NCBI GenBank assembly: GCA_012295275.1
Contig: CM022665.1
Span: 42,594,001 to 42,658,000 of the forward strand
Direction of reading: 5' to 3'
DNA length: 64,000 nt
Source of the DNA: Chrysomallon squamiferum
Lineage: Eukaryota; Animalia; Mollusca
Shown here: piece by piece, positions 14,883 through 53,808 of the stretch
Position numbering within the stretch: the first letter of the stretch is position 1
Layout: every line of letters starts with the position of its first letter
Program-made: the position numbers and the translations under genes
The notes under the pieces: model-generated
Databases searched by the model: none
Told to the model about the DNA's origin: nothing
Seen by the model: the letters and a program-made list of their open reading frames with translations, nothing else

Positions 14883-14923
<41 letters not shown>

Positions 14924-16147: not shown

Positions 16148-16432
16148 GTAAAAATCTGGTTTCAGAATCGAAGGGCGCGAGAGAGGCGCGACCGAGAGTC
16201 CTCCCAAATGTCGCCTCTGAGACAGAAATCCTTTCAGCCCTTGCTCGTGCCGTCAGTCACGTGGCCTATCTTTCCGGCTAACGGGTCTCTCGCCCACTTC
16301 CACACGGCGATCCAGCAGACGCGAATGGGTTTCCTCCCCTCGGCCTTCAGCCTGTACCTCCCCCAGCAGGAGGCGATCTCGGGATCGCCGTGTGCCGAGA
16401 GTTCGAACGGATGCGTAGATTCCAATATGTAA
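16148..16432 (+). CDS. Msxlx: Msxlx-like homeobox gene, exon 3 (recognition helix and C-terminus)
   Basis: Polypyrimidine tract then CCAG|GTA. Reads VKIWFQNRRARERRDRESSQMSPLRQ...DSNM with TAA at 16430-16432. Joins exon 2 in phase 0. Confidence 0.88.
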   Translation, partial: VKIWFQNRRARERRDRESSQMSPLRQKSFQPLLVPSVTWPIFPANGSLAHFHTAIQQTRMGFLPSAFSLYLPQQEAISGSPCAESSNGCVDSNM

Positions 16433-25500: not shown

Positions 25501-25615
25501 GTAGCTCTGTATATTGTGTGCATAACGTTTATTTAAAGATACTTCATTTTTTTTTATTATTATTTTTTTAACCTGTTATTGATATTTTAATTTTTTTTTT
25601 TTCAGAATTAGCATC

Positions 25616-26572
25616 ATGTCTGTGTGGGTATACATCCTAATTTTTCAATTATCATGGCGGATTTACTCCACCCAGGAGAATCGCAGTGCAGTTGCGTCCC
25701 TTATCATCTCTCTTCAACAGAAATACTGTGTAGACAGAAGCTGCAAGACGTCAAACAGTACTCAGGAAATGTATCCTCCTTTCTCCTGTCCTCCTTGTTA
25801 CGAATGCTCTTGTGAAAAAGACTGCGTGATTTTCGGAGACTGCTGCCCGGATCTTCACATTGGACCGAGCCACTATTCATTTCAGTGTCTTGATATCCCG
25901 TTCATGACCGGAAGGAAGGAGAGATATTTTATTCTGAAAACCTGCAGTCAGACTGATACAAACTACAGTGAAGTGCTTGCCGAGAAATGCCACAACTTTC
26001 GACTTGATCCCACAGGCGACTATCTTACAACGGCAACCGTGACGTCTGCAGCAGGGGTAACGGCTAACATCACCTTCGGGAACAGATTTTGTGCGGAATG
26101 TCACGGCGTCGGCGACTCTGTTCCCTGGAACATCATGGTGGACTGCGCGGTAACACCTCAGTCGAGCGACGTCATTAACGTTGAGGAATTTTTAAAATGG
26201 GCGACAGAAGCTTGTTCTGTTGGTTTTGTACCACCTCCTCAGTTTAGACGCGGCATCAGACGATGTAAAGTGCTGGAATCGGAACTGATCTCTTCATGTA
26301 ACGGAACTGCGAGTCCCGGCGTTTACAATGAAACCATAGCACAAGCTTGTTCTGCGTACTACAACCCGCTCATTCAGGGCAAATACAGAAATATGTTCTG
26401 TTACCTCTGCAGTGGACAGGCTGAGAGAGATCTGCAGTTTCTTGTCGAGTGCGACGAGGCTGTGAGGTGGAGTGTACAACCTTTCTCGGCGATTTTAAAC
26501 TTCGAAGCTGTGCAGAAGTCCAAAGCACAGACTAATAAATGTATGGACGATGATTTCGAAGATAGCATTTCA
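25616..26572 (+). CDS. Methuselah-like / class B (7tmB3-like) GPCR, coding exon 1: signal peptide, somatomedin-B-like and Cys-rich ectodomain
   Basis: Hydrophobic N-terminus, SMB-like CSCEKDCVIFGDCCPD, and repeated Cys motifs (FGNRFCAECHG, YRNMFCYLC). Phase-0 donor TCA|GTAAGT at 26572. Confidence 0.85.
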
Positions 26573-26819
26573 GTAAGTTGATGTATTTGACACACACACA
26601 CACACACACACACATGCATGTATTTATACATATATTATACATTTATATATTATTATGGATACATATTTGTATATTTTAACAACAACAAAGAAATAATTTA
26701 ATAATAATAAAAAAAATTAATAAGAAAAAAAACAGCTATTTGGTATAAAACTTACGATTAAGATACACGACTAAATAATTATACTTCTGTCGATTAGCAA
26801 TAAAATACTTTTAATGTCA

Positions 26820-26920
26820 GCCTTCCCACAGAAAGGAAAGATAATACTACGGTCTATGATAATCTGAGCAGGGAAATGTTGCGATGGGAATTAGCCTAAA
26901 GGAGACCTCTGAGAAGATTA
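26820..26920. mobile_element. Degenerate SINE-like fragment in the GPCR intron
   Basis: CCCACAGAAAGGAAAGATAATACTACGGTCTATGATA...GGGAATTAGCCTAAAGG resembles, from memory only, the core of an abundant gastropod SINE. Not verifiable here. Confidence 0.25.
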
Positions 26921-26941
26921 TCTTCTATTTATCTGTGGCAG

Positions 26942-26976
<35 letters not shown>

Positions 26977-28559
26977 TCCGGAATCACTTGGGACCAACCA
27001 TATATACCGTTTTATAAAAATTAAAATGACATGAAAAAGAATGAATGAGATTTTTGAATTTGCCGGTCGTTACTCTCTGGTGAAATGTTGGTTTCGTATG
27101 GCTGCTGATCGCTACGTTTTAAAATGTCAAATGCATAGCCAGGGCTCATTGGGTGTGGGGGGTGTCGACTTGGGCGAAATACTCGCTTTACTTTTAACCC
27201 ACGCCAAAGTCTAAGTCGCCTTATTTTTTCTTTAAAATGTATTTATTTATTATTATTATTATTATATTCTACTTGAATGTTGAAAGTACCTACATTTTGC
27301 CTCCATTTTTGTCCAACGATGACGTGAAAAGATTTTGTGATTGGCCAGCGCTATGTGACCAACTGAATGAAGAGCTGCAAAATACATTGTTTTACAGCTG
27401 TGATTAGAGGCTGACAATAAATACAGTTCTTTTAAACTTTTACACAAATTAAATTAACTGAAATGGACATGATAACTGACTGCACGGAATTACTTGTACA
27501 GTAAAGATTACAATTAACAAACCAACGTAAGTGAAGGTCCAGGACAGGAGAAAGCAGGCTGCAAATAATCATACAGAAACATAACAATAAAACTTTTGTT
27601 AAATAATTTGACCACCTATGGCATGAGTCTGTATGCAATATTTTGTTTAAGGCATTTTTAAAAAAAATTATTTATTATAAACATGTTTACATGTAAGATA
27701 TTTAATTTTATGTTTGTGACAATGGCTTGGTTATTGTCTCATTTCGTGCTAACGTGTCTAAACGAAGAAATTACTTCTCCCTAGTTTTCTAACCTAGAAT
27801 GAACCCCGCATAATTAAATCTTTCTGTTTATACAGTGGATTTGATAAAAACTCTTCTATTAATTTGGCTTTAGAAAGTTCGATACATTGCCGTTTTTTTA
27901 GGTTGCTCTGCCATTAAAACTACTTCAGTAAGACAATGCAACATCTGCGCCATGCGTATATATATGTTAGGCTTGTGCTTTTGACACTAAATCAAAATGA
28001 GTGAATTCACTTAGATATCAGCACATACTAATAATCATTATGCTGCATGTAGTAATTTCAAGAAGCATGATATCATTATTTATTAAGCCTTCAAAGAAGT
28101 GCGATCATTTCTCCGTCGTCTAATTACGTGCAAATTGAAATGTTCGTACTTGCAAAATTGTGTGGCTATGTTGACAAAACTAATTATACAACGTTTGTTT
28201 TGTTTAGGAATTTACACCCGAAATCCGAAGAAGACAATAAAAGTGTTTTTATTATCATACATTCTAGGATTACAGTATAGAGAAGAATGCATTACAGAAA
28301 TATAATAACAAAAATGACAATGTTCATAATAGATTAATGATAGCTGACCGACACTTTGAAATGATGCCGGTTTATGTGTGTACATAATCTAATGTTTAAT
28401 ATTTATGATAATTAAGATCATAATTACCATTATTATTTTTATTTTTATTACATCAGATAGATTACAAATCACAGCCCTGTTAAAATATCTCTGTATAACT
28501 AACGTTATCTAACATGCACATAATCTTATCTATAACAATAAATATTTCCTTTATTGCAG

Positions 28560-30248
28560 AAAGTATGTCGCAAAATCTTGTGTCCATCGCTTCAGCAGTG
28601 GAAGGGAGGTAACTGTAGATACTTCATTGACTCGGCGAAAGGGATTTTAATCAAAATGGAAATGATTATGATTCCTTTGTCGCTTTTGGAAATGGAACTG
28701 TTTCTTTTCGATAAAACGTTAATAAATGCTGTACGGGAAAAAATACCTTGGGATTTTTATGTACTTAAAATATCTGTCCAGTTAGCTCTCCAGCCTGAAA
28801 AAGTCGACAACCCCAGGAACGACTATTACAATGAAACTACTACGACAACACTCCCGATGCCAGACACTTATACAGTTGTTTTCGTCAAAGTGTCTATTAT
28901 TGTTACTGCAGCGTCTCCTGTCTCCATGTCCAAAACAAAGAAAAGCCTTCTCGATTTTCAGTACGAGAAATTTACTGTAGGAATCAGAAGATTCGCAGCT
29001 CTCCCCTCGGTTTATTTTGACATCCAGTCTCTGAATTTGTCTGTGAGTCCTAACATGTTAGAGACTGATACGTTTGAAGATGATGGGATTCAGATGTTGT
29101 CGACTGCAGCAATTCTTGACATCCCGTATCCTTATCTCCAGTGTCCTCACGTAGAATTCAAAGACGACGAATATGAAAGACTTCCAAACGGATCATTGCT
29201 TGTCGTTCCTGATTCGCTTTACGTGTACGATCCTCATTTTGAAATAACCAATTCTTCAAAACTTCGAGTCTGTGTTGATCATCTCCGTCACCAAATAGAC
29301 CAGAAAAAAACTTTGAATAGCAAAGACAGGAACGACGTACTCAATTTAAACCTGTCTGATCGAACGATTACAACTGTCACTGCAGTGTTTCTAGGTCTCA
29401 GCTTGCTGTGTCTTTTCCTCACCTTTCTGACTCATTGTCTTTTCGCAGATTTGAGGACTCTGCCAGGAATCAACTTGATGTTCCTCACCTCGTCTTTGTT
29501 TGTGTCCCAGGCTCTCTACCTGTTCGGTGCTGGCGCCACGGACGACGAATTCATATGCAGAATCATCGGCATCGTCATCCACTACAGTTGGCTGGTGACA
29601 TTTGCTTGGATGAACGTCTGCTCCTTCCACGTCTTCAGAGTGTTCAAAAACCTGTTTTCTGCCCTTGGCTTTAATGATAAAAAAGTAACTATCATCGTCA
29701 GATATGCGCTTTTTTCATACATCGTCCCCGGCGTCATTGTTGTACTCAACATCCTTATTCATTATTACGTTTTGCACCAACAGTCGCTTGGATACAGCGA
29801 AGGAGGGAATATTTGTTTCATTACATCAGGACTCGCGTCAGTTCTCTCCTTTGGTATTCCTGCAGGTCTCACAGTTCTTATGTCTTCAGTCTTCTTCATC
29901 TACACATGCGTGGTGCTTCACAAAACATCCAAAGAGAGGCAGACGGTGGGCAAAAAGGAGAGCATTCCTGTGTTTCGATTCTTCAAACTGACGTCAATTA
30001 CTGGACTGTCCTGGTTGTTTGGATTCCTCGGGTCAGTATTAAAAGTTGAAATCCTGGCCTATGTGTTCATCATTTTGGCTGGAGGGCAGGGTTTGCTCAT
30101 CTTTCTGTCCTTCACGTGCACAAAGATCGTGTGGAAGAAATGCACGGCTTGCATCTGTCAAGTGAGAAGAAAGAAAGAAACAGAGAATTTGTCTCACTTT
30201 ACAAGCGGCGCAGTGGACAGTTCGTCCACAGAACAAACCATGACATGA
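28560..30248 (+). CDS. Methuselah-like / class B GPCR, coding exon 2: remainder of ectodomain and 7TM
   Basis: Acceptor TTGCAG|AAA, phase 0. Seven hydrophobic segments with class-B/Mth-like motifs (SLLCLFLTF, LRTLPGINL, CRIIGIVIHYSWLVTFAWM, GLSWLFGF, GGQGLLIF). Stop TGA at 30246-30248; AATAAA at 30284 and 30291. Spliced protein about 881 aa. Confidence 0.9.
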   Translation, partial: KVCRKILCPSLQQWKGGNCRYFIDSAKGILIKMEMIMIPLSLLEMELFLFDKTLINAVREKIPWDFYVLKISVQLALQPEKVDNPRNDYYNETTTTTLPMPDTYTVVFVKVSIIVTAASPVSMSKTKKSLLDFQYEKFTVGIRRFAALPSVYFDIQSLNLSVSPNMLETDTFEDDGIQMLSTAAILDIPYPYLQCPHVEFKDDEYERLPNGSLLVVPDSLYVYDPHFEITNSSKLRVCVDHLRHQIDQKKTLNSKDRNDVLNLNLSDRTITTVTAVFLGLSLLCLFLTFLTHCLFADLRTLPGINLMFLTSSLFVSQALYLFGAGATDDEFICRIIGIVIHYSWLVTFAWMNVCSFHVFRVFKNLFSALGFNDKKVTIIVRYALFSYIVPGVIVVLNILIHYYVLHQQSLGYSEGGNICFITSGLASVLSFGIPAGLTVLMSSVFFIYTCVVLHKTSKERQTVGKKESIPVFRFFKLTSITGLSWLFGFLGSVLKVEILAYVFIILAGGQGLLIFLSFTCTKIVWKKCTACICQVRRKKETENLSHFTSGAVDSSSTEQTMT

Positions 30249-31565: not shown

Positions 31566-32443
31566 TTTTGTTTGTTTAATTATTCATTCATCTATTTACT
31601 GTTGATTTGTTTATTTATATTTTTATTCTTACGTCGTTTTGCCGACTGCTCCCGAGTGGAGCCGAATGTAACGTCCAAATAAAAAATAAAAATGTATTAA
31701 GTGACGTCATATCTATGACAACCAGATTTCCCTTGTGAATTATCGCTTTGGAAAGATGAATTTCTTCAGAAAATATTTTTTCTCTCGAAAGAGGAAAAAG
31801 AAAGAATATTATCGAAGCAAGTAAGATTTTCCTAAGATTGCATATTATAACACGTCAAAATTCATTACGTGGGATACATTTACATATAACTTTGCAGTTT
31901 AGGTTCTATAAATATTTTGCTATGATTTATAACTGTTTCTGCGAAAACATTAAATGTCTATGGTCAAACCAGTCAATGCCGACAACGCGAAGATTTAAAC
32001 TGCACGATTACCGATTTATATTCATATTTGATTTTATAAATCAACTATTAATACAATTTATTATCTAGTGCGTTCTCTGATCATTCAAACGTTTAGATAT
32101 TAAAATTAGGAATTTATGTGATTGTTTTAATAACGAGTTACTGTTACTAGTACCACTATCACCATGACTCCACTTTTATAAGATTCCTCAACTTTAATCG
32201 AAGCACTGACATTCATAATTAGTTTAGTATTAGACTATGCTATCGGATTTAAACGGCGAACGGGTGAAGGGAGATAACTTTGTTCATACTACTTACAGTG
32301 TTATGCCAAGACATTTGTAGAGTTCTCTTTGAATTTCAGCTAAGTCTACGAAATGCAGGGATTTTACAGCCCTACTTTTAAATTATAATCGAACAGACTA
32401 TACCTCTAACAATCTTTTATTATTATTAATTTTTTTTTACCAG

Positions 32444-35400
32444 TGACTATGTATTCTTCCCGGAAGGGTACGAAGATGTAAGCGTTGCCGATAAGACTCA
32501 GGTATGTTTTATTTGTATTCTTCAATTTTAATACTTTTAGTGTGAAATTCATAACTTGGTATAAAACAAACAAACAAACAAACAAACAAATATACAAATA
32601 AATTTTAAAAATAAATAAATAAAATCAATAATTATAATAAGAATAATAATAAAAATTATAATAAGAATAAATATGTTAATTATTAAATGTTTCTTTGATT
32701 TCCTTAACAACAACAATACTACTAATAAAAATGATCTCGATTGTTAAATTATTTTGAAGTTTAATATAATTTTTTTTTTTTTTTTTTTTATAGAATAACA
32801 TCTTTGAAATCTTTGGTGGGTATTTAAATAAGTTTACACTATACAGTTTCTTTAGTCACAATACACATTGCACATATATTTCAGGTGGGGGCACGCTGAG
32901 GCGGGGCTGTCCAGTAAAAACAGCAGTAGTTTTCATGATATCAGTTGTAATATTAATATTAGTAGAAGTAGTAGTACTACTAATTAGTACCAATGAAGAC
33001 AGGAGACAGGAGAAAAATATTAGACAAAAGATTTCCAGTGTAATTATTTATAAATAATTATTTACTCTATTAAGAAGTATAAACTGTATTGCAAATACGC
33101 ATAGAAATACAATTTCGAATTTTCTACACACTTTATATCTGCTATATGAAAAAATGGAACATAATAAATGATATTAAACAATGGAAATATAAACAGCTAC
33201 ATTTTAATATTGTGTAATGGATGTTTATTCTGAATTTTGAAATTTGAAATATCAATTTATCTATCAAAGGATTATCTAAGTTCTGTAAATCTTGTAGATT
33301 TCACATGTCCAGTGACCAAGACATTTCAAGACTTTGAACACACCCCGGTAATTATCAGTTTAATATTCTTTTTCTTTGTAATTTATATATTCTTTCCCTC
33401 TTTTTTCTTTCTTTTGTCTATTTATTTATTTTAACTATATATATATATATATATATATTCTTTGTTTTCAGATTTGTTTTCATTAAATATATGAATTTAA
33501 TATCGTCAGTGTTTTATATGTTAGTAATTTTAAGTGTTAAATGAATTTTTATTTCATCATTATTATTATTTTTCTTTTTTGTAATTATGAGGAATACTTT
33601 AACTAAGAATGACAATAATTGGTAACTGTTTGTTGTTAATTAATTGATATGCATCATTTCAGGATAATACAGGTGCGAGGGAGGAGGAAGAAGACCTCAT
33701 TGTAAGTTTCAAACATTAATGTGATGAAAACATTCGGTTGTTCCACTTTATTTTATTACACTGTCCTTACAAAATCCTGTATTAATATTCTCTACTAAAT
33801 CATCTAATACATATTTATTTAAAACAGACTGAAATTTAATTTATAACTCTGAAATATAAAAACATAATGCAGTTTAAAAACTCAGTGATATTTCCCACCA
33901 ACAGCATAGTTACCTGACTCCGTGAATGAAATTATAACAACATGAAATCATTTAAAATGCTAAGAAAGAAATTTTAAAACTTACAAAACTAAAATGAATT
34001 ATATAATTTCACTTTCCAGTTCTATATTGAAATTGATGGCTACACTCCACCGACCGGTGAGTATTTTTAATCAACCTATTTGTGCACATTTACTGTACAC
34101 CAATGTTTTAAGAGACACCTTGCAATGATAAGCAACTAAAATGATGTACATATCTATTCTTTAGAAAATGAAAGAAATTATCATTCCAGTGTTCAAATGA
34201 TTATTCTTCTTAATTACCTACAAGGTACAAGATACTAAAATTGTGGCACTATATGTTTCTTAATAAATCATTGACAGTTGCGAACAATATAAAACCATAT
34301 TTTAACTCTAAGCTGTCTAATCTGATCCAAAAACTAAATTATTTTAAGAAAAAAAGTTGTTATAAACTAACATGAAAAACTGGATTAAAATATTAAACAA
34401 AGTCATGTAATCAATATTTTGTAATGATTAACAAAAATTATTGTATGAAGGTGAAACTCCTTTTATTTTTTTTTTTTTTTATATTACTTAATCTTTTTTA
34501 TTATTGTTTTTTTAAAGCACCATACATTCCCGATTTTGACATTTTTAATGAAACTGCGAACTGTAGTGGACCCTTCCATGTGATGGTTAGTATTTGCACT
34601 TTAGTTTTTAATCAATAAAATTGTTCTGTCATTTACAACTGAAGATTTTCCATAGTATCAGACAAAAAAAGGGAAACAATAAAAAAAAAAAAATAATAAT
34701 AATAATAAATAAATAAATAATAAATAAACTAAAATAATAAAAGTAAATAAAGACTAATTTGTTTTAAATTTTTTTTTTTTTTTTTTTTTAATGCACCATA
34801 TATTCCTGATTTTGACACTTCTAATGAAACTACTAATTGTAGTGTACCCTTCCATGTGTCGGTTAGTATTTGCACATCAATTGTTAATAAATAAAATTGT
34901 TATATCATTTACAACTGAAGATTTTCCATAATATGAGATGAAAAAAGGGACACAACACGAACAAATAATAATATTAATAATAATAATAAACAAAAATAAA
35001 AAATAAAAAATAAATAAATAAAATATAATTTTAAAAAGGAAATAAAGACTAGTTAATGTCCGTGTTTAATGTGAGCATCCCACTTAGAGATGTTTACTAG
35101 ACTATTTATTGTGGTTGAGATTTGAGATATACAGGATCAGTTCTACTTACAGCCATTTCCCAATCCAGTCACAGCCCCATTATTCATTTATGAAGAATAC
35201 AGAATCCCTATGGAAAGATGCCTTTAAAATATCTCCTTTTAGTCAGTAAGCCCATGATGTATTGTCTGTAGTTTTCCTTTGCTGACCTCTGTAAAATAAA
35301 AATATAATTTACTCCATTCATTCACTTTTACTTTATTGTGAAACTCAAAGAAAGGTCTCAGTATAGTTTATTCCTTTATTAACTTTTACGAAAAATTCTA

Positions 35401-37907
35401 TTTAGATTTTATATTTCATGACACTTAAATTAAGATTTTACATTACTTTGTTCATTAATGTGTGTAAAGTGTAGTGATAAAAAAGTATAATGTTAAATGT
35501 GTTTTTGTCTCTTTATTCAGACTCCACAGATAGAACATGAAAGAAGGGTGTGTATAGCTTTTTAACTCTAGAATTATCGTTATTATTAAATGTCTTACAG
35601 AATACTTTATATAAAACTAAGTGAAGACAATGAATGCAAAGAGTTAATTAAAGTGTTCATAACTACATCCACTGCAATCTGCTATTTTGTTTATTTTCAG
35701 TTTCTTTGGCACTGAATATCACTGTATAGATGACACATGTTAACTATGAATATGAGTATTGAGTCATACATAATTCTCAAGTTTACCAAAAAATAAATAA
35801 ATAAATTTGGAAATAAAGATAAAAAGGAAAAAGAAAAGAATAGAGTTTTATTATCATCAATTATTACGTATTATATATTATTATAATTCTCTTTCCTTAA
35901 TATTAAGAAAGTTTGGCCCCTAAAAAGAAAATCTCAAAGTTAGACAATTTATTTAGTCTACAGTTTCAAATTTCATTTTACTTGCAGGTCCACTCCTCTG
36001 AAAAAAACACCGATCATGAGTGAGTTACTACTAAAAATTCTTAATTAATGTTATTAACAAACAAACAAAAAGCCACAAAAGAAAGTAACCATTAACATCA
36101 ATCAGATAAAGTAACTATTAACATAAGAATAGGAAAATGTATTTCTTTGTCATTTGAAAAAAATATTGGTAGTAATTTGTTTTATGTTATTAAATCTTGG
36201 TTTGTCATGTTACTATTTTAAAAGCTTTATCAAAATTACTTTGATTTAAATATTTGATTCATGTTTCTTAGAAGTGTATCTTTGCCTCAAATAAACTGTT
36301 TAATAAATAAATACAGATAAAAAAGGTAAAGAGTTTGAGAACAAAAGGTGTTCTTTTATTATTTCCTTTTTATTGATTGATTTATTTATTGTTATTGATA
36401 TTATTGTTATTATTATTTCAAAATAGATGGTTTATCTTTTTGGTATTTTGCAGCTTTCATCCTGACCAAAACATAAACGCACCTTTGAATGAGTTGGTTA
36501 GTATATGCACATTAGTTGTTAATAAATAAAATTGTTTTGTCATTTACAACTTAACATTTTCCTTAACATTAGGAAAAAAACAACAAAAAACAAATAAATA
36601 AATAAATTTTAAAAAGTAAAATAAACACAGGTTAATGGTTGTGTTTAATGTGAGCATCCCACTTGGAGATTGTGGTAGACTATTTATTGTGGCTGAGATT
36701 TGAGATATTCAGGATCAGTTCTACTTACAATCATTTCCCATGAGCCTCATCATTCATTTATCAAGAATATTGAATCTCAGAGGGAAAATGCCTTTGAAAT
36801 ACCTCCTTTTAGTCAGAAATCCCATGGTGTATTGTGTGTTGTTTTCCTTTCCTGACCTCTGTAAAAGAAAAATATATTTTACTCCATTCATTCACTTTTT
36901 CTTTATTGTGAAACTAAAAGAAACCTAAAAAATCTCAGTATAGTTTATTACTTTATCAAATTTTATGAAAAATACTATTTAGATTTTATATTTCATGACA
37001 CTTATATTAAGATTTTATATTACTTTGTTCATTAATGTGTGTAAAGTGTAATGATAAAAATGTAATATGTTAAATGTGCTTTTGTCTCTTTATCCAGACT
37101 CCGCAGACAGATGAGAAGAAAAGAAAGGTGTAGTATAACTTTTTAACATCTAGAAATATTGTTATTATTAAATGTCCTATAGAATACTTTAGATATATGT
37201 AAGTGATCAGGATGGATGCCAAGAGTTAATTAAAGAGAGTCTGTATACTTTCAAAATGTATGTGTTCATAGCTACATCCACTGCAATTTGCTATTTTCTG
37301 TATTTTCGGTTTCTTTGGCACTGAATAACACTGTAGAGATGATATATGTTAACTTCACATATAAATATCAGTAATGACTCATTCATAATCCTGAAATGTA
37401 CTACAAAAATAAATAAGCAAGTTATGAAATAAAGAAAAAAAAAAAAAAAAAAAATGCAGCCTCTAAAAAGAAAATTTTAAAGTAACAAACTTTATTAAGT
37501 CTACAATTTCAAATTTCATTTTACTTACAGGTCCACTTCTCTGGGGAAAACACCATACACAAGTGAGTTACTATTAATATATCTTAATTAATGTTATTAA
37601 CAAACAAAACAAACAGAAACAAAGTAACCATTAAGAAGAATCAGATAAAGTGACTTTTGACATAAGCATAGGAAAATGTATTTTTTTTGTTATATGAAAA
37701 AGAATTATAGGTACTAATTTTTTGACATGTTATTAGATCTTGATTTGTCATGAAACTATTTTGAAATCTTTATTTAATAACAAAATACTTTGGTTTAAAT
37801 ATCTGGTCCATGTTTCTAAGAAGCCTATCTTTGCCTCAAACTGTTTAATAAATAAATACAGATACAAAAAACTAAAATGTATAATTATTTTATTATTTAT
37901 TTATTTA

Positions 37908-37978
<71 letters not shown>

Positions 37979-38214
37979 TTGGATTCAAAACATATGGTTT
38001 ATCTTTATTGGTATTTTGCAGGTTTCATCCTGGCCAAAAAATTAAGTCCACACCACTGCAACAGCTATTTCGTGTTTTTTGCCTGTGTATGTATAAAGAA
38101 AAGAAATATTACATATTTTGTAGATCATTCATTATTCTAATCATCCATCCAGTATTTTCTTTACAAGCAACTGAACCTAAAACAAATCCCATACGTGCAA
38201 CAGATAACAGAAAT
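32444..38214 (+). CDS. Putative micro-exon gene of unknown function (13 predicted exons of 22-68 nt; start and end not defined)
   Basis: AG/GT-bounded exons: 32444-32501, 32794-32815, 33298-33347, 33663-33701, 34020-34056, 34518-34585, 35521-35547, 35988-36019, 36454-36496, 37098-37127, 37531-37562, 38022-38086, 38168-38214. They join phase-compatibly without stops. Differences versus copy 2 include synonymous changes and 3-nt and 6-nt indels. Confidence 0.6.
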
Positions 38215-38443
38215 GTACATATCCCCCTACAATACAATTAGTATATAAAAACAAGATATTTACTCATATATAATTATTAGATAAAATCAATACATTTACT
38301 TTGAACAGTTTATTATAGAAATGTGTTTCACCTAGTAACTTCATTATCACTGGAGTGGGCTTAAATATTCATTCGTTTGTTTTACAGACCACTAAGGAAA
38401 CCAGAACAATTAGGAAAAAGGACACGACTGGTTTTATACATTA

Positions 38444-41400
38444 TAGTTTTTTGATTGAATTTAATTTTTTGTGAATAACAAATGAAATACAATTAAACTT
38501 GTTATTATTGTAAAAAAAACACCAAAGAAAATAGAAAAAAAAAACCACTGTAAATATTTTAACTTATTATTTTTTTGATTAAATATAATTGTTTTGTAAA
38601 TAACAAATGAAATACAATTAAACTTTTTATTAGTGGAAAATATAAAAAATGAAAACCAATATAAATATGTATACATACTAGTTTTTTGATTAAATATAAT
38701 TGTTTTGTAAATAACAAATCAAATACAATGAAACTTTTTATTAGTGTAAAAAAACAAACAAAAAACAATGTAGATATGTGTATCTACTAGTTTTTGATTA
38801 AATATATTTTTGTAAATAATAAATGAAATACAATGAAACTTTTTATTAGTGTAAAAAAGTGATAACTGGTGCAAATAATAGTTTTTTGATTCAATATAAT
38901 TTTTGTAAATTACAAATGAATACAATTAAACTTTTTATTATTATAAAATAAAAAAAATAAAAATCCAATGTAAATATGTATACATACTAGTTTTTTGATT
39001 AAATATAATTGTTTTGTAAATAACAAATGAAATACAATTAAACTTTTTATTAGTGTAAAAAACAAACAAACAAAAAACAATGTAAATATGTGTATCTACT
39101 AGTTTTTGATTAAATATATTTTTATAAATAACAAATGAAATACAATGAAACTTTTTATTAGTGTAAAAAAAAAAAAAAGTGATAAGTGGTGCACATACTA
39201 GTTTTTTGATTCAATATAATTTTTGTAAATAACAAATGAATAAAATTAAACTTTTTATTATTGTAAAATAAAACAAAATAAAAATCCAATGTAAATATGT
39301 ATACATAGTAGTTTTTTGATTAAATATAATTGTTTTGTAAATAACAAATCAAATACAATTAAACATTTCATTAGTGAAAAAAAAAAATGTAAATATATGT
39401 ATCTACTAGTTTTTGATTAAATATAATTGTTTTGCAAATAACAAATGAAATACAATGAAACTTTTTATTAGTGTAAAAGAAAAACAAAAAGAATGTAAAT
39501 ATGAGTATCTACTAGTTTTTGATTAAAGATATTTTTGTAAATTACAAATGAATACAATTAAACTTTTTGTTATTGTAAAATAAAAATAAATAAAAATCCA
39601 ATGTAAATATGTATACATACTAGTTTTTTGATTAAATATAATTGTTTTGTAAATAACAAATCAAATACAATTAAACATTTCATTAGTGAAAAAAAAATGT
39701 AAATATATGTATTTACTAGTTTTTGATTAAATATAATTGTTTTGCAAATAACAAATGAAATACAATGAAACTTTTTATTAGTGTAAAAGAAAAAAAAAAC
39801 AGAATGTAAATATGAGTACATACCAGTTTTTACTATAGTACAAAGAAAAAACACTTTAAATGTGTACATAGAAGTTTTTGATTAAATTTAATTTTTTTGT
39901 AAATAACAAACAAGCACAATGAAACTTTTTATTAGTGTAAAAAGAATGTAAAATGTGTACATACTAGTTTTTTGATTAAATATATTTTTTTGTAAATACC
40001 AGATGAAATATAATTCTAATTCTAAGAAAAAACCCACTATAAAAATGTGTATATCCTAGTTTTTTGATTAAATTTAATTGCTTTGTAAATAACAAATGAA
40101 TACAGTTAAACTTTTATTAGAGTAAACAACAAGAAAAAAACAACAAAACAATGTAAATGTGTACATATTACTCTTTTATTAAATAATTGTTTTGTAAATA
40201 ACAAATGAAATGAAATGAAACCTTTTTATTATTGTAAGAAAACAAAACCTGTAAATGTGTATATACTAGTTTTTGATTAAATTTTTGTAAATAACAAATG
40301 AATTATAATTCTAAGAAATAAAACACTGTAAAAATGTGTATATACTAGTTTTTTGATTACATTCAATTGCCTTGTAAATAACAAATGAAATACAATTAAA
40401 CTTTTTATTATTGTAAGAAAAGAAAACCTGTAAATATATGTATATACTAGTTCTTAGATTAAATATAATTGTTTTGTAAACAACAAATGAAATAGAATGA
40501 AATTTAAACTAGTGTAAAAAAACAACAAAAAAATGTAAATGTGTACATACTAGTTTTTGATTCAATTTAGTTGTTTTGTAAATAACAAATGAAATAACTT
40601 ATTATTATTGTAAGAAAGAAAACACTGTAAATAGGTGTGTATACTAGTTTTTGATTAAATTTAATTGCTTTATAAATAACAAATGAAATACAGTTAAACT
40701 TTTTATTAGTGTAAAAAACAACAAAAACAACAATATGAATGTGTACATATTATTTTTTTATTAAATATATTTGTTTTATAAATAACAAATAAAATACAAT
40801 AAAAACTTCTTATCAGTGTATAAAACAAAACAAAACAAAACAATGTGAATGTGTAAATAATAGTTTTTTTTATTAAATATAATTGTTTTGTAAATAACAA
40901 ATGAAGTACAATGAAATTTTATTAGTGTAAAAAAAGTAAATATGTGTATATACTATTTTTTGTTAAATATAATTTTTTTGTAAATAACAAATGAAATACA
41001 ATTAAACTTCTTATTATTAAAAAAAAAAAAAAAAAAGAAACACTGTAAATATTTTATCTTATTAGTTTTTTGAGTAAATTGTGTTTTGTAAATAACAAAT
41101 GAAATACATTTAAACTTTTTATTGGTGTAAAAAAAAAAGAACAAGAAAAAATGTAAATATGTGTAGATACTAGTTTTTTGTATAAATATACTTTTTTTGT
41201 AAATAACAAACGAAATACAATTAATTTTTTTTTATAGTACAAAGAAAAAACACTTTAAATGTGTTCATACTAGTTTTTGATTACATTTAACTCTTTTGTA
41301 AACAACAAAAGAAATACAATTAAACCTTTTATTATTGTAAGAAAAAACACTGTAAATATGTGTCTACACTAGTTTTTTTTAATTAAATTTAATTGTTTTG

Positions 41401-41610
41401 TAAATAACAAATGAAATAAAATTAAACTTTTTATTATTGTAAGAAAAAACCTGTAAATATGAGAATATAATTGTTTTGTCAATAACAGACAAAATACAAT
41501 TAATTTTTTTTTATATTAGAAAGAAAAAAACACTTTAAATGTGTACATAGTAGTGTTTGTTTAAATTTAATTGTTTTGTAAATAACAAATGAAATACAAT
41601 TTAACTTTTT
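38444..41610. repeat. AT-rich satellite array, monomer about 95-112 bp, roughly 30 copies
   Basis: Monomer ACTAGTTTTTTGATTAAATATAATTGTTTTGTAAATAACAAATGAAATACAATTAAACTTTTTATT, then an A-rich variable part, then TGTAAATATGTGTAT. CTAG at 38678, 38787, 38987, 39099, 39198 and onward. Confidence 0.95.
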
Positions 41611-43880
41611 ATTTTTTTGTTTGTTTTTATTTATCAACCTAGAAAACAGAATTTCTGAAACCTTCTTAATGTACTGAGAACTTTTTTTTTGTTTAAATAT
41701 ATCTGAAGTTGTTGAAATAGCTCAATGGATATTGTTTTCATAATTATCAAATCCACACAAATGGAAACTGTATCAGTAGTTGTCACTTGACACATAACTC
41801 CAAGTTTCTTTGTAAATATTCATAACATTTGAAGATATTAAATTTAAACTTACTTAAGTAACAACAGTTCAGTGCAATTGTTAATGTTGAAATAAGTGCA
41901 CAGGTAGTGCAAAACTAAGAATATATATGTGTCTATTAATAACATGTATATATTAGAAAACTGAAGACAGGTATTATAATTTTTGAATATGACAAGATTT
42001 AAATCTTTCATCAAGAATAATGAATGGAAAAAAAAAACCCGTAAATAATAAAAAAAAGGGAATAAAAAAGATATTTTTAAATATGTAAAAATAATTCTTT
42101 GCAACTTGATAGGGGAAAGCTGGTTATCAACAGAGTGATCCCATCTTTAGTAACACACCTGCCTATCCAGCAGAATCAAAATTAAACCTAACACAAAAAG
42201 GACAAGCCTGTCATTTAAAAAGTAAGAAAAAAAAAAAAAAATAATAATAATAAAAAGGGGGAATACAACGAAAGAAAGATTTTAAAAAGATATTTCCTAT
42301 GCCAATTTCAATTATTCTGATGAAATTTTCTTAAGATAATGTGACTTATTCGAGAAATGACAATAATTTGAATAAAAGGACCAGGTTCAAAAATAGATAA
42401 TGGAAATAGATTTAAAAATTAAACAGATTCGATTTAGCATGACATAAAATTAGCATTACCCAATCCAAAAGGTCCGTAGTTATAAGATATTGAAGTCTTA
42501 CATTCTGCCCCTCGACGTCCGTACACAAAGCAGCAGAACTGAATCTTAAAGGGAAACAACTCTAGACCACATTTTACATTTCCGGGAAGAAACACTATAG
42601 ATAACGTTTTTAAAACGAAAAAATGAAGCCAGCAAACATAAAAGTGAATTTTTAAATTCTGTTGAGGGGATACAGTCTATTTGTCTAATTTGGGTTTTTT
42701 CGTTTGCTTTTGTTCTTGTTGTTTGAAAATAAATAAATAAATAAATAAATAACATAACATAACATAAAATACCCGTAGTAATTCAGTAGAAGCAGCTGTG
42801 TGAGGTCAATAATGAAATGTTACAATTATTTCGTTCAGATATCATGCTGTTATTCACAATCTACATTTAACAGATTAAGAAACCTTTAAAAATAAAATAA
42901 AATAATGACTGCAATAATAAATAAAAAAATAAAAAAGAAACACCACAGAATAGTTTACAGTAGTTTTAAAACCTGATGTTTTATTCACATTTCTGAAAAA
43001 GCACTACGTAAGTACTTCATTATAATAAAAGATCAAACGTTTCTGTTTTACGTCGTTTTGCTGACTGCTCTTGATTGTAACCGAATGTAACGTACAAATA
43101 AAAAATAAAAATATAATAAGTCACGTCATATCTATGACCAACGAGATTTGCCTTGTGAATTATCGCTTTACAAAGATGAATTTCTTAAGAAAATCTTTTT
43201 TCTCTCGAAAGAGGAACAAGAAAGAATATCACTGAACCAAGTAAGATTTTCAGTGTAATTTATGTATTTACTTATGCATTTTATAACACGTCAAAATTCA
43301 TTATGTGGGATACATTTACATGCAGCCTTGCAGTTTAGGTTCTATAAATATTTTGCTATGATTTATAACTGTTTCTGCGAAAACATTAAATGTCTATGGT
43401 CAAACCAGTCAATGCCGACAAGGCGAAGATTTAAACTGCATGATTACCGATTTATATTCATATTTGATTTTATAAATCAACTATTAATAAAATTTATTAT
43501 CTAGTGCGTTCTCTGATCATTCAAACTTTTAGTGATTAAAATTAGGAATTTATGTGATTGTTTTAATAACGAGTTACTGTTACTAGTACCACTATCACCA
43601 TGACTCCAGTTTTAAAAGATTCCCCAACTTTAATCGAAGCACCGACATTCATAATTAGTTTCAGTATTAGGCTATGTTATCGGATTTAAACGGCGAACGG
43701 GTGAAGGGAGATAACTTTGTTCATCCTACTTGCAGTATTATGCCAAGACATTTGTAGAGTTCTCTTTGAATTTCAGCTAAGTCTATGAAATGCAGGGATT
43801 TTACAGCCCTACTTTTTAATTATAATCTAACAGACAATACATCTAACAATATTATTCTTCTTATTATTTTTTTTTACAAG

Positions 43881-46800
43881 TGACTATATATTCTTCCCGG
43901 AAGGGTATGAAGACGTAGGCATTGGTGATACCACTCACGTATGTTTTATTTGTATTCTTCAATTTTAATACTTTTTTCAAATTAATTCAAAACACCTTTG
44001 GTGTGAAACTCATAACTTGGTATAAAAAAAAAAAGAAAAAAAAAAAGAAACAAATATACAAATAAATTTGAAAAATAAATCAATAAAATTTATAATAATA
44101 ATAATAATAATAATAAAATTTATAATAATAATAACAAAAATTATAATATTAATAATAATAAGAAATATGTTAATTATTGAATGTTTCTTTGATTTCATTA
44201 ACAACAATACTGCTAATAAAAATATTCTCCATTGTTAAATTATTTGTAAGTTCAATTTTATTCTTATTTTTTTTTTACAGAATAACACCAACATCTTTGA
44301 AATTTATGGTGAGTATTGACTTAAGTTTACACTATACAGTTTCTTTAGTCACAATACACATTGCATATATATTTCAATAATTGTTTAATAATAGCAAAAA
44401 AAAATATCTATGAAACAATTTGTAGTTTTTAATCATTTTAAATTCATATATATATAACATTCTAATACAAATTTAAACATTTTAATTTTCTGTAATGGAT
44501 GTTTATTCTGAATTTTGAAATTTTAAATATCAATTTATCTATCAAAGGATTATCTAAGTTCTGTAAATCTTGTAGATTTCACATGTCCAGTGACCAAGAC
44601 ATTTCAAGACTGAACACACCCCGGTAATTATCAGTTTAATATTCTTTTTCTTTGTAATTTATATATTCTTTCCCTCTTTTTTCTTTCTTTCGTCTATTTA
44701 TTTATTTTAACTATATATATATATATTCTTTGTTTTCAGATTTCTTTTCATTAAATATATGAATTTAATATCGTCAGTGTTTTATATGTTAGTAATTTTA
44801 AGTGTTAAATGAATTTTTAATTCATCATTATTATTATTTTTCTTTTTTGTAATTATGAGGAATACTTTAACTAAGAATGACAATTACTGGTAGGTGTTTG
44901 TTGTTAATTAATTGATATGCATCATTTCAGGATAATACATGTGCGAGGGAGGAGGAAGAAGACCTCATTGTAAGTTTCAAACCTTAATTTGATGATTCAG
45001 TTCCATTTTATTTTATTACACTGTCCTTACAAAATCCTGTATTAATATTCTTTATTAAATCAGGTAATACATATTTATTAAAAACAGACTGAAATTTAAT
45101 TTATAACACTGAATTATAAAAACATAATGCAGTTTAAAAACTGAGTGATATTTCCCACCAACAGCATAGTTACCTGACTCCGTTAAAGAAATTAAAACAA
45201 CATTAAATCATTTTAAAATTTTAAGAAAGAAATTTTAAAACTTACAAAACTAAAATGAATTCTATAATTTCACTTTCCAGTTCTATATTGAAATTGATGG
45301 CTACACTCCACCGACCGGTGAGTATTTTTAATCAACCTATTCGTGCACATTTACTGTACACCAATGTTTTAAGAGACACCTTGCAATGATAAACAACTAA
45401 AATAATGTACATATCCATTTTTTAGAAAATGAAAGAAATTATCATTCCAGTGCTCAAATGATTATTCTACTTAATTATCTACAAGTTAAAATATACTAAA
45501 ATCGTGGCAGTATATGTTTCTTAATAAACCATTGACAGTTGCAAACAATATAAAACCATATTTTAACTCTATGTTGTCTAATCTGATCTAAATTTTAAAT
45601 TATTTTAATTTAAGAAAAAAACTTGTTATAAAATAAATAAATAAAATAAAATATTAAAAAGTAAATAAAGACTAGTTAATGTCGATGTTTAATGTCAACA
45701 TCCCCATTAGAGATTGCGCTAGACTATTTATTATGGCTGATATTTGAGATATACAGGATCAGTTCTACTCACAGCAATTTCCCAATCCATTCAGAGACCC
45801 ATCACTCATTTATGAAGGAAACTGAATCCCTATGGAAAGATGCCTTTAAAGTATCTCCTTTTAGTCAGTAAGCCCATAGTGTATTCTATGTAGTTTTCCT
45901 TTCCTGACCTCTGTAAATTAAAAACATAATTTAGTCCATTCATTCACTTTTTTAATTGTGAAACTAAAACAAAACTAAAAAATCTCAGTATAGTTTATTC
46001 CTTTATTAAATTTTATGAAAAATTCTATTTAGATTTTATATTTCATGACACTTATATTAAGATTTTACATTACTTTGTTCATTAATGTATGGGAAGTGTA
46101 GTGATAAAAAACTATAATGTTAAATGTGTTATTGTCTCTTTATTCAGACTCCACAGATAGAAGAACATGAAAGAAGGGTGTGTATAGCTTTTTAACATCT
46201 TGAATTATAGTTATAAAATGTCTTATAGAATACTTTATATATCAGTAAGTGAAGACAATTAATTAAAGCATTCATAACTATATCCACTGCAATCTGCTAT
46301 TTTGTTTATTTTCAGTTTGTTTGGCAGTGAATAACACTCTATAGATGACATTTAATAAAATTTTATAATCAATAATTATTACATATAACATATTATTATA
46401 ATTCTCTTTCCTTAATATTAAGAAAGTTTGGCCCCTAAAAAGAAAATCTGGAAGTTAGACAATTTATTTAGTCTACAGTTTCAAATTTCATTTTACTTAC
46501 AGGTCCACTCCTCTGAAAAAAACACCGATCATGAGTGAGTTACTACTAAAAAATCTTAATTAATGTTTTTAACAAAAAATTCTACAAAAGAAAGTAACCA
46601 TTAACATCAATCAGATAAAGTGACTATTAACATAAGAATAGGAAAATGTATTTCTTTGTCATTTGAAAAAAATAGTGGTAGTAAATTTTTTTTACATGTT
46701 ATTAAATCTTGATTTGTCATGTTAGTATTTTAAAAGCTTTATTTAATATCAAAATTACTTTGTTATAAATATTTGATTCATGTTTCTTAGAAGTATATCT

Positions 46801-46884
46801 TTGCCTCAAATAAACTGTTTAATAAATACAGTTACAAAAGGTAAAGAGTTTGAGAACAAAAGGTGTTCTTTTATTATTTCCTTT

Positions 46885-46931
<47 letters not shown>

Positions 46932-48514
46932 TTGTTATTGTTATTATTGTTGTTATTATTTCAAAATAGATGGTTTATCTTTTTGGTATTTTGCAGCTTT
47001 CATCCTGACCAAAACATAAATGCACATTTGAATGCACATTAGTTGTTAATAAATATAATTATTTTGTCATTTACAACTTAACATTTTCCATAATATCAGA
47101 GAAAAAAAAAAAATAATAATAAAAAAAATAATAATAAAAAAATAATAATAAATAATAATAATAAGAATAAACAACTAAGTTTTAAAAAGTAAAATAAACA
47201 CAAGTTAATTGTTGTGTTTAATGTGAGCATCCCACTTGGAGATTGTGCTAGACTATTTATTGTGGCTGAGATTTGAGATATACAGGATCAATTCTACTTA
47301 CAGCCATTTCCCAATCCAGTCAGAGCCTGATTACCGATTTATCAAGAATACTGAATCCCTATGGAAAGATGCCTTTAAAATATCTCCTTTTACGTAGAAA
47401 TCCTATGGTGTATTGTCTGTAGTTTTCCTTTCCTGACCTCTGTAAAAGAAAAATATAATTTAATCCATTCATTCACTTTTTCTTTATTCTGAAACTAAAA
47501 GGTCTCAGCATAGTTTATTCTATTTATTAACGTTTACGAAAGATTCTGTTTAGATTTTATATTTCATGATGCTTATATTAACATTTTATATTACTTTCTT
47601 CATTAATGTGTGTAAAGTGTAATGATAAAAATGTAATATGTTAAATGTGCTTTTGTCTCTTTAACCAGACTCCGCAGACAGACGAGAAGAAAAGAAAGGT
47701 GTAGTATAACTTTTTAACATTTCGAAAGATTGTTATTATTAAATGTCCTACAGAATACGTTATATATCAGTAAGTGATCATGATGGATGCCAAGAGTTAA
47801 TTAAAGAGAGCCTGTACACTTTCAAAATTTATAAGTGTTCATTGCTACATCCACTGCAATCTGCTATTTTGCTTATTTTCAGTTTCTTTGGCAGTGAATA
47901 GCACTGTAGAGATGATATGTGTTAACTGCACATATAAATATCAGTAATGACTCTTTCATAATCCTGAAATGTACTACAAAAATAAATAACCAAGTTATGA
48001 AATAAAGAGAGAAAAAAAGGAAAAAGAAAAGAATAAACTCCTACTGTCATCAATTAATACATATTAGATATTAATACATATATCGTTCCTTAATATTAAC
48101 AAAATTTAGCCTCTAAAAAGAAAATTTGAAAGTAACAAACTTTATTAAAACTACAATTTCAATTTTCATTTTACTTACAGGTCCACTTCTCTGGGGAAAA
48201 CACCATACACAAGTGAGTTACTATTAATATATCTTAATTAATGTTATTAACAAACAAAACAAACAGAAACAAAGTAACCATTAAGAAGAATCAGATAAAG
48301 TTACTATTGACATAAGCATAGGAAAATGTATTTCTCTGTCATTTGAAAAAGAATCATTGGTAGTAATTTTCTGACATGTTATTAGATCTTGATTTGTCAT
48401 GTAACTATTTTGAAATTTTTATTTAATAACAAAATACTTTGGTTTAATAAATTCTTTAATAAATAAACACAGATAGAAAAAGCGAAAGAGTTCAAGAACA
48501 AAATGTGTTCTTTT

Positions 48515-48562
<48 letters not shown>

Positions 48563-48576
48563 TTATTTATTTATTA

Positions 48577-48612
<36 letters not shown>

Positions 48613-49045
48613 TTCCCTTCAAAACATATGGTTTATCTTTATTGGTATTTTGCAGGTTTCATCCTGACCAAAAAATTAAGTCCACACCACTGCAACAGCT
48701 ATTTCGTGTTTTTTGCCTGTGTATGTATAAAGAAAAGAAAAATTACATATTTTCTAAATCATTCATTCTTCTAATCATCCATCCAGTATTTTCTTTACAA
48801 CCAACTGAACCTAAAACAAATCCCATACATGCAACTGATAACAGAAATACAATTAGTATATAAAAACAAGATATCTACTCATATATAATTATTAGATAAA
48901 ATCAATACATTTACTTTGAACAGTTTATTATACAAATGTGTTTCACCTAGTAACTTCATTATCACTGGAGTGGGCTTAAATATTCATTCATTTGTTTGTT
49001 TTACAGACCACTAAGGAAACCAGAACAAGAAAAAGGACAGGACTG
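43881..49045 (+). pseudogene. Decayed paralogue of the micro-exon gene in duplication copy 2
   Basis: Exons at 43881-43938, 44281-44308, 44576-44623, 44931-44969, 45281-45317, 46148-46177, 46503-46534, 47669-47698, 48181-48212 and 48656 onward. Exon 3 has a 2-nt deletion giving TGA at 44611, exon 6 is deleted, and the exon 9 donor is deleted. Confidence 0.55.
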
Positions 49046-49059
49046 GTTTTATACATTAT

Positions 49060-49125
49060 AGTTTATTGATTGAATTTAATTTTTTGTAAATAACAAATGA
49101 AATGTAATTAAATTTCTTATTATTG

Positions 49126-49162
<37 letters not shown>

Positions 49163-50250
49163 ATTGTAAATATTTTAACTGATTAGTTTTTTGATTAAAT
49201 ATAATTAGTTTGTAAATATCAAATGAAATACAATTAAACTTTTTATTAGTTTTTTATAAAAATGTAAATATGTCTACATACTAGTTTTTTGATTAACTTT
49301 AATTGTTTTGTAAATAACAAATGAAATACAATTAAACTTTTTATTAGTTTTTTATAAAAATGTAAATATGTCTACATACTAGTTTTTTGATTAACTTTAA
49401 TTGTTTTGTAAATAACAAATGAAATAGTTAAACTTTTTATTATTGTAGGAAAAAAACACTGTAAATATGTGTATATACTAGTTTTTTGATTAAATATAAT
49501 TGTTTTGTAAATAACAAATGAAATACAATGAAACTTTTTAGTAGTGTAGGAAATAAACAGTGTAAATATGTGTATATACTAGTTTTTTGATTAAATATAA
49601 TTGTTTTGTAAATAACAAATCAAATAAAATGAAACTTTTTAGTAGTGTAGCAAGAAAACTCCTATAAATATGTGTATATACTAGTTTTTTGATTAACTTT
49701 AATTGACTTGTAAATAACAAATGAAATAGTTAAACTTTTTATTATTGTAGGAAAAAACCCGCTGTAAATATGCGTATATACTAGTTTTTTGATTAAATAT
49801 AATTGTTTTGTAAATAACAAATGAAATACAATGAAACTTTTTATTAGTGTAAATAAAATAACCAAAAAATGTAAATTGTACATACTAGTTTTTTTTATTA
49901 AATATACTTTTTTGTAAATAACAAATGAAATAGAATTAATTTTTTTTATAGTAGAAAGAAAAAACCCTTTAAATGTGTACATACTAGTTTTTGATTAAAT
50001 TTAATTGTTTTGGAAATAACAAATGAAATACAATTAAACTTTTTATTATTGTAGGAAAAAACCCCTGTAAATATGTGTATATACTAGTTTTTTGATTAAC
50101 TTTAATTTCTTTGTAAATAATAAATGAAATAAAATTAAACTTCTTTTTATTATTGTAAGAAAACAAAACCTGTAAATATGTGTACATACTAGATTTTTGA
50201 TTATATATAATTGTTTTGTAAATAACAAATAAAATACAATGAAACTTTTT
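49060..50250. repeat. Second array of the same satellite (about 100 bp), roughly 12 copies
   Basis: CTAG at 49281, 49379, 49478, 49579, 49681, 49781, 49885, 49984, 50084 and 50189. Confidence 0.95.
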
Positions 50251-53200: not shown

Positions 53201-53771
53201 CACCCGTGTTAATTTTTGTTTGATACAAGGAAAAAACAAAAAAACTGTTTCATGAACTGATTTACGAGGGAATTGGTATTGATGTCATACATGCAGATAC
53301 AACACAGATACAGGTAAGTTTTTTTTATTTTTTTTATTATTATCTTTATTTTTTAAATTTTTGTTTGTTTGTCAAAATGAGGATATAGTTAAGATGTATT
53401 TAGTATGAAAAGAAGTATGTTATTTTGATTTTTATTTAATTTATATCTTTTATAGACCATTAAGCAATAAGGGAGAATTCTGTACTGATTAAATTTCTTT
53501 TAATTATTTTCATACTAAATTCTTAATTTAATTATTAGTTAACAAAGATATATAATTTTTTTGACATTGTCATGAGAACGTATATATATTTGTAACATAA
53601 TTATTTTATAAATATATTTACTTTCTGTTTTTATTTATTTTCTTTCTTTCTTTTTTATATTTATATATATATATTATATATATATATTTTCAATAGCTTT
53701 ATATTGATGACAGAAATACTGAACATAAATAAGATTCATTATCTTTTTTGTTTCTTTTATTTCTTTTTATA

Positions 53772-53808
<37 letters not shown>

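Follow-up and report, generated by a model that had tools for sequence, protein, structure and literature searches.

Exon organization of the locus

The DNA analysed here is a 64,000-nucleotide stretch of Chrysomallon squamiferum contig CM022665.1 (positions 42,594,001 to 42,658,000 of the forward strand, assembly GCA_012295275.1), referred to below as the window. It is AT-rich animal DNA and includes, on the plus strand, a chain of short exons that very probably belongs to a real protein-coding gene. All coordinates are positions within the window (Table 1). An earlier reading of the letters, made without database searches (the sequence-only reading), had proposed that 13 tiny, GC-richer exons, named here E1 to E13, splice into one open reading frame and form a micro-exon gene (MEG). 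The 13 islands were found where that reading had placed them, each with AG at its 5′ side and GT at its 3′ side, and they are free of stops when joined. They are GC-richer than their surroundings with the exception of E2 (GC content 0.23), and the word tiny does not describe them well: the lengths range from 22 to 68 nt with a median of 39 nt, and only two of the 13 are 27 nt or shorter. As the same reading had conceded, several donors are weak, with ranks of 37, 55 and 95 among 334. The last of these is that of E13, a weak member of the chain that is separated from E12 by an "intron" of only 81 nt, itself in frame and stop-free.

The chain can be extended by the exon E0, which supplies an ATG preceded by a stop in the same frame and ends in a donor that fits the phase-2 start of E1. 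Joined in order, E0 to E14 measure 658 nt and encode 219 codons without a stop, with AG/GT at every junction and introns of 81 to 935 nt. Six alternative 3′ endings yield 206 to 240 codons, and no firm last exon was found in the window.

Table 1. Exons of the putative gene and associated features, in window coordinates.
Feature	Position	Strand	Observations
CRE-like palindrome	31702-31709	+	Lies in a CpG-rich, promoter-like 5′ region (about 31600-32500); putative function
E0 (first coding exon)	31756-31820	+	ATG at 31756; phase-2 donor (rank 14/334); polybasic 22-residue N-terminus
E1	32444-32501	+	58 nt, phase 2 to 0; exact pick of the frame-blind scan
E2	32794-32815	+	22 nt, phase 0 to 1; stronger frame-equivalent donor after 32884
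E3	33298-33347	+	50 nt, phase 1 to 0; alternative frame-equivalent acceptor at 33313
E4	33663-33701	+	39 nt, symmetric; exact blind pick
E5	34020-34056	+	37 nt, phase 0 to 1; exact blind pick; best donor of 334
E6	34518-34585	+	68 nt, phase 1 to 0; missing from copy 2
E6′ (likely decayed tandem copy of E6)	34794-34861	+	Frame open, donor kept, acceptor AG lost
E7	35521-35547	+	27 nt, symmetric; paralogue of E10
E8	35988-36019	+	32 nt, phase 0 to 2; paralogue of E11
E9 (hybrid exon at internal duplication junction)	36454-36496	+	43 nt; 5′ part E12-like, donor and 3′ intron E6-like
E10	37098-37127	+	30 nt, symmetric; gives basic half of the RVxF motif
E11	37531-37562	+	32 nt, phase 0 to 2; gives VHF half of the RVxF motif
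E12	38022-38086	+	65 nt; may instead read through to a stop at 38239-38241
E13 (weakly supported)	38168-38214	+	47 nt; acceptor rank 34/315, donor rank 95/334; both sites lost in copy 2
E14 (candidate)	38388-38430	+	Strong acceptor, weak donor; frame continues
Array of tandem units of about 100 bp	38431-41620		Intron or 3′ untranslated region; inside the CpG-poor domain
E15 (candidate)	42171-42221	+	51 nt; at the end of the CpG-poor domain
Copy 2 (pseudogenized tandem duplicate of 31629-42584)	43048-51216	+	Defined by self-alignment and lesions

Recovery of the exons by a frame-blind scan

Phase compatibility alone proves little, as any set of exons can be joined, and the chain was therefore tested with a scorer that ignores the reading frame. 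The scorer combines generic splice-site frequencies (approximate, taken from general knowledge and untrained on these exons) with a composition term whose GC values, 0.42 and 0.25, were taken from these exons and introns, so that it is not fully independent of them. Its top 16 picks included 10 of the 13 exons with exact ends (E1 and E4 to E12), E2 and E3 with a different donor and a different acceptor, respectively, the donor of E0, and three other segments, one of which lies beyond E13. When the composition term was removed, eight exons were still recovered exactly. As the alternative ends of E2 and E3 keep the frame, the ATG followed by the 12 overlapping picks is open; the product of the open-frame fractions is 0.00018 for these 12 picks and 0.0008 for the nine that are not duplicated. 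E1 to E12 joined in random order gave an open frame in 5 of 20,000 trials. Five picks on the plus strand and none on the minus strand scored at least 10, and 14 control strands had zero to four such picks, the two strands with four being copy 2 and the region of a decayed gene.

These results bear on the explanation that there is no gene and the chain is a chance product of selection by eye in AT-rich DNA, or that the exons belong to a noncoding multi-exon RNA such as the host of small nucleolar RNAs (snoRNAs). The three low-ranking donors and the lack of a homologue in searches with single exon stretches (see below) are in line with such an origin, which is nevertheless highly improbable in view of the blind recovery, the strand asymmetry, the open chain, and the conservation of the splice flanks, where 3 of 201 sites differ between the two copies (1.5%). 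Rfam returned no match at E values up to 1 across 31000-52000; intronic snoRNAs were thus not found, with the proviso that novel ones could escape this search.

CpG profile

The ratio of observed to expected CpG is 1.13 at 4-25.5 kb, rises to 1.39 at 31600-32501, falls to 0.31 at 32502-38430 and to less than 0.1 up to 42250, and returns to 0.95 beyond this point. Copy 2 has a like profile (1.08, then 0.31). Within the CpG-rich segment, 54 nt 5′ of E0, lies a palindrome that resembles a cyclic AMP response element (CRE). In the oyster, DNA methylation rises past the start site, reaches a plateau in the gene body and drops after the gene end, and young repeats are methylated too (PMC4378273). 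By this analogy, the profile fits a transcription unit of about 31.7 to 42.25 kb and matches the gene-body methylation of the oyster; it would record the history of the locus and not its present activity. The arrays of about 100-bp units at 38431-41620 and 49051-50255 are nearly CpG-free and differ in length between the copies, and a lone related unit is found at about 58420-58520.

Duplications and decay of the tandem copy

Self-alignment revealed three duplication events. E6 was duplicated in tandem to give E6′. A block that begins at the E6 donor and ends where E12 starts, with introns that are 12% divergent, was duplicated to generate the pairs E7/E10 and E8/E11 together with the in-frame hybrid exon E9. 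The segment 31629-42584 was then copied to 43048-51216, with introns that are 6.6% divergent after masking of low-complexity positions. The internal duplication (E7-E9/E10-E12) is the older and the tandem copy the younger. Copy 2 is a pseudogene: codon 20 of E0 has become a nonsense codon, E3 and E14 have deletions of 2 and 4 nt, respectively, E6 is missing, and the E9 donor and both E13 sites have been lost. The sequence-only reading had seen coding-type divergence in this copy, and the changes on which it relied are all real (6 additional nt in exon 2, 3 additional nt in exon 7, and TAC/TAT and GAT/GAC substitutions). The description was selective, since it rested on in-frame and silent changes and omitted the nonsense codon, the frameshifts and the lost exon and splice sites. 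The possibility that copy 2 is an uncollapsed haplotype was considered and is not favoured, given the 6.6% intron divergence, the many lesions and the different flanks.

Two segments on the plus strand, 42171-42221 and 51608-51658, are exon candidates with strong acceptors, and in one reading they join in phase 2 and encode a basic tail that includes RRVSF, a loose RVxF motif, before a stop. The candidate at 51608-51658 occurs solely downstream of copy 2, so that the last exon may have been left out of the tandem duplication. An exon-like island on the minus strand at about 35150-35286 has copies at about 36640-36860, 45690-45920 and 47220-47450. It sits inside the introns E6-E7 and E9-E10 and has a good acceptor, and each of the four copies keeps a GT(A/G)AGT donor. 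None of the three frames of the 35150 copy is free of stops, and the island may be a remnant of another gene, or else a repeat.

Divergence between the copies

The exons proposed by the sequence-only reading differ between copies at 19 of 473 sites (p=0.03). The difference from the introns is strongest for E3 to E12, a subset picked after the data had been inspected, with 5 of 349 sites (1.4%) compared to 230 of 3,434 in the introns (6.7%, p=1e-5). Base composition does not explain this conservation, as divergence is higher at the GC-richer sites of introns (9.1%). Gene conversion is not favoured as an origin of the exon similarity: intron divergence is uniform, 5.0 to 7.5% over five segments, so that conversion tracts would need to be of exon size. 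The ratio of nonsynonymous to synonymous differences per site (pN/pS) is 0.52 for E0 to E13 (p=0.2), and 0.40 for E1 to E13 (p=0.045). The internal paralogues have a ratio of 0.66 and the pair E6/E6′ one of 0.34, and the pooled value is about 0.5 (p=0.03). The evidence for purifying selection on copy 1 is mixed, with a positive leaning. The sequence-only reading had named exon islands that diverge as fast as introns, with frame-breaking indels, as grounds for its refutation; E3 to E12 diverge less than the introns, E0 to E2 diverge faster, and copy 2 has frame-breaking indels.

A different account holds that both copies are nonfunctional, copy 1 being an incomplete or lately inactivated duplicate of a gene located elsewhere in the genome, with a frame that is open by inheritance. 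Copy 2 is indeed dead, the region collects decayed duplicates (the helicase pieces described below and the minus-strand island in two introns), the search for a last exon gave no firm result, and a candidate terminal exon occurs only after copy 2. On the other hand, copy 1 has no lesion where neutral simulations expected 2.7 to 3.7, and remained intact in 2.4 to 6.9% of those simulations, which presume an intact ancestor. Furthermore, the sole copy-1 indel that can be polarized is in frame (E7 has 27 nt, compared to 30 nt in copy 2 and in the paralogue E10), and the 5′ decay of CpG to TpG leans to copy 2 (9 versus 2, p=0.065). We consider this account unlikely.

Several results weigh against the existence of a functional gene with the exons as drawn. 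Two of the additional blind picks, 32183-32263 and 35153-35245, would break the frame if added. When all aligned exons are taken together, 34 of 687 sites differ between copies (4.9%) versus 303 of 4,600 in introns (6.6%), a difference that is not significant (p=0.11), and the stronger result for E3 to E12 carries the burden of its post hoc selection. E0 to E2 differ at 19 of 145 sites, more than introns do (p=0.009), an excess that is partly CpG decay. The internal paralogous exons are no less divergent than their introns (18% versus 12%, p=0.15), and the single pN/pS tests are mostly nonsignificant. Loss of CpG marks repeats as well, and the decayed helicase region is equally CpG-poor (observed to expected ratio 0.24). 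Finally, the splicing pattern is one that we infer from genomic DNA. Set against these points, the open chain, the blind scan, the CpG profile and the divergence between the copies support the proposal of an unannotated-looking, lineage-specific, multi-exon coding gene.

Predicted protein and a candidate PP1-docking motif

The predicted product has about 205 to 240 amino acids (205 for E0 to E13). It is hydrophilic, with a grand average of hydropathy of −0.99, few hydrophobic residues and no membrane segment. Residues 1 to 22 carry a predicted charge of +8 and residues 23 to 113 one of −17, and there are five Thr-Pro sites. At residues 155 to 160 the sequence KRKVHF is formed across the E10-E11 junction and depends on that splice. 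It fits the extended RVxF consensus [KR][KR][ACHKMNQRSTV]V[CHKNQRST][FW], which is used for interactors of protein phosphatase 1 (PP1) (PMC4794898). The extended consensus arose by chance in 122 of 50,000 shuffles, and has two matches across the six frames of the unspliced window. Hydrophobic residues are located 6 to 9 positions past the motif Phe, where a PhiPhi motif would lie, and E0 carries a secondary PP1-type motif, Fxx[RK]x[RK]. The spacing resembles that in GADD34. Copy 2 has the same RVxF motif, and the Phe is lacking from the duplicate module E7-E8.

Disordered PP1 regulators in which RVxF is combined with PhiPhi include Ki-67/RepoMan and spinophilin (PMC5005033, PMC6377682). With these regulators the predicted protein shares its hydrophilic character, the extended RVxF motif and hydrophobic residues at PhiPhi distance. 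It differs from them in that no sequence homology beyond the motif was found, the SILK motif is absent from the predicted product, the RVxF motif is split over two small exons, and the binding is a prediction. The likeliest mechanism would be that of a hydrophilic, intracellular, disordered adaptor that docks on PP1. This proposal is tentative and rather doubtful, because the motif was noticed post hoc and no orthologue in which it might be conserved was found in the searches described below. It is further weakened by the loose RVxF consensus, which arises in 35% of shuffles, and by the shuffles themselves, which do not preserve the clustering of basic residues.

The same evidence for a gene is compatible with a real coding orphan in which the RVxF sequence is incidental, for example a nuclear localization signal (NLS) followed by VHF, and which would act by way of different short motifs or by binding nucleic acids, possibly in germ-line cells. 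KKRK is a classical NLS pattern as well, the duplicate module is without the Phe, and the motif was chosen after inspection; in the other direction, the extended consensus is rare in shuffled sequences and a second PP1-type motif is present. Such an orphan is a rather unlikely alternative to the PP1 adaptor, and a stronger one than the dead duplicate considered above.

The reading that we favour by a small measure is that of a lineage-restricted, gastropod-type gene whose roughly 14 small, constitutive exons would encode a disordered, PP1-docking adaptor. Transcription would start from the CpG-rich promoter near 31.7 kb, and the transcript would be spliced from E0 onward as drawn, with all exons constitutive. 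By virtue of its basic N-terminus the protein might then enter the nucleus or associate with an acidic surface, and KRKVHF would bind the RVxF groove of PP1, a capacity that the E7-E8 module would have lost with its Phe. Localization and docking are the least certain of these steps, and docking in particular is only tentatively proposed.

Homology searches

Homology searches were performed with single unbroken exon stretches plus intronic flank, and not with the spliced product. In a set of 5.8 billion proteins, the E6 stretch gave one candidate and no match, and the E1 stretch no candidate. The sole match of the E12-E13 read-through in 1.84 billion representatives, P0001, was discarded: it is a singleton open reading frame of tandem repeats, and its score is an artefact of adding up 23 stretches with about 25 bits each. 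The best score in the ESM Atlas was 0.80, which is chance level. No Pfam family was found for 11 exon stretches, and six-frame Pfam scans gave two matches below cutoff to domains of unknown function in 12 translations and none in another 12. Among metagenome contigs the E5 pattern had no match, and a further pattern search returned 384 matches, none of which was confirmed. These negative results are weak, as the adjacent control gene also lacks an identical entry (its best full-length match is 45%), so that the proteins of this species seem to be absent from the collection. A likeness of E1 to E3 to the MELT repeats of KNL1 was considered and dropped.

Of the sampled words of 32000-38500, shares of 0.12 to 0.28 are present in four RNA runs from a single study and in a fifth run of unknown kind. 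Since exon-internal 31-mers are only 184 of 6,471 (2.8%), these shares cannot come from spliced exons alone, and unspliced RNA, DNA or repeats must contribute; they were not counted as evidence.

Neighbouring features

Upstream of the locus, a homeobox gene occupies 8376-16432 (+). It has a Pfam Homeodomain match (E value 2.7e-10) and is Msx/NK-like; an intron interrupts the homeodomain, and at 11654-11912 an acceptor region of 99 bp is duplicated. It is followed at 25606-30248 (+) by a gene resembling those of adhesion G protein-coupled receptors, with two large exons, a cysteine-rich N-terminal part and a 7tm_2 match (E value 5.5e-16); this secretin-family seven-transmembrane receptor has relatives in abalone and limpet, none of them identical.

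Downstream of copy 2, the region 51876-54430 (+) contains decayed DEAD-box helicase pieces with introns, stops and frameshifts, one of five tested giving a Pfam Helicase_C match (E value 0.016). They presumably resemble DDX52/Rok1. A search of the PDB with a helicase fragment returned designed-repeat artefacts and one weak helicase match (E value 0.28). At 54986-55689, some 16 units of 44-46 bp are arranged in tandem with 90% identity. Exon-like islands at 56145-56306, 58097-58187, 58580-58705 and 63432-63800 (+) lie in a CpG-poor region; several have stops, and none has a Pfam match.

Comparison with micro-exon genes

MEGs are said to consist mostly of very small symmetric exons, to encode products with signal peptides and to be apparently restricted to flatworms (PMC4350168), and their exons are given as mostly 15 bp and in multiples of 3 (bioRxiv 10.1101/2023.06.21.545858). 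The locus shares with the schistosome genes MEG-1 to MEG-32 a count of 10 to 20 short coding exons, introns of a few hundred bases or more, lineage restriction, duplication, and difficulty for automatic annotation. It differs from them in its longer exons of mixed phase (median 39 versus mostly 15 nt), its basic N-terminus, its gastropod-like host, a pN/pS of about 0.5, and the absence of a sign of skipping. The closer likeness that the sequence-only reading had drawn does not stand. That reading gave the lengths of exons 4, 7 and 10 correctly, and these are the only symmetric exons: 3 of 13, comprising 17% of coding bases, which is not above the one-in-three expected by chance. Exons of up to 36 nt hold 26% of coding bases and those of up to 27 nt only 9%. 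Microexons have been defined as exons of up to 27 nt (PMC8378409) or up to 30 nt (PMC8042270); by the former limit E2 and E7 qualify, and by the latter E2, E7 and E10. With E0 as the first exon, a hydropathy scan of the first 35 residues gave a best 9-residue value of −0.01, and thus no segment resembling a signal peptide. As to the host, the neighbouring receptor had nine matches, of which the six named are from Haliotis (four), Patella (one) and Pinctada (one), mostly gastropods and with no platyhelminth among them. No MEG-like gastropod gene was found in the literature searched, which was at abstract level and included few subscription journals.

A schistosome-like MEG would use combinatorial skipping of symmetric exons to diversify a secreted or surface protein. 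Ten of the 13 exons are 51 nt or shorter, and E6′ hints at a pair of E6 exons that were once mutually exclusive. As the sequence-only reading had suggested, skipping of E4, E7 or E10 is predicted to leave the frame free of stops; the same is true of the blocks E2-E3, E5-E6, E8-E9, E7-E9, E8-E10 and E9-E11. The scarcity of symmetric exons, their length and the lack of a signal peptide argue in the opposite direction, and it is unlikely that the locus works like a MEG by means of skipping-based isoforms; as a full account of the locus, a schistosome-like MEG is improbable. Scarcely less so is a combination in which a gastropod-specific PP1 regulator would have its binding switched off by skipping of E10, E8-E10 or E9-E11, in a MEG-like manner that arose independently of flatworms.

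Orphan genes can grow by tandem exon duplication and may be accompanied by a pseudogenized tandem paralogue. The locus resembles such genes: it has no detectable homologue, one of its exon blocks was duplicated and left a hybrid exon in frame, one duplicate exon has decayed, and the tandem copy is dying. No categorical difference from them was found, the uniformly small size of the exons (22 to 68 nt) being its peculiarity.

The locus is thus likely to be an orphan gene whose weight is at the level of annotation, and it is also a clear case of exon-block duplication combined with the decay of a tandem copy. Gene finders may miss this gene, as every one of its exons is short. It gives no ground for carrying the biology of schistosome MEGs over to molluscs. 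If the RVxF motif assembled by splicing were a regulated PP1 switch, the locus would matter more.

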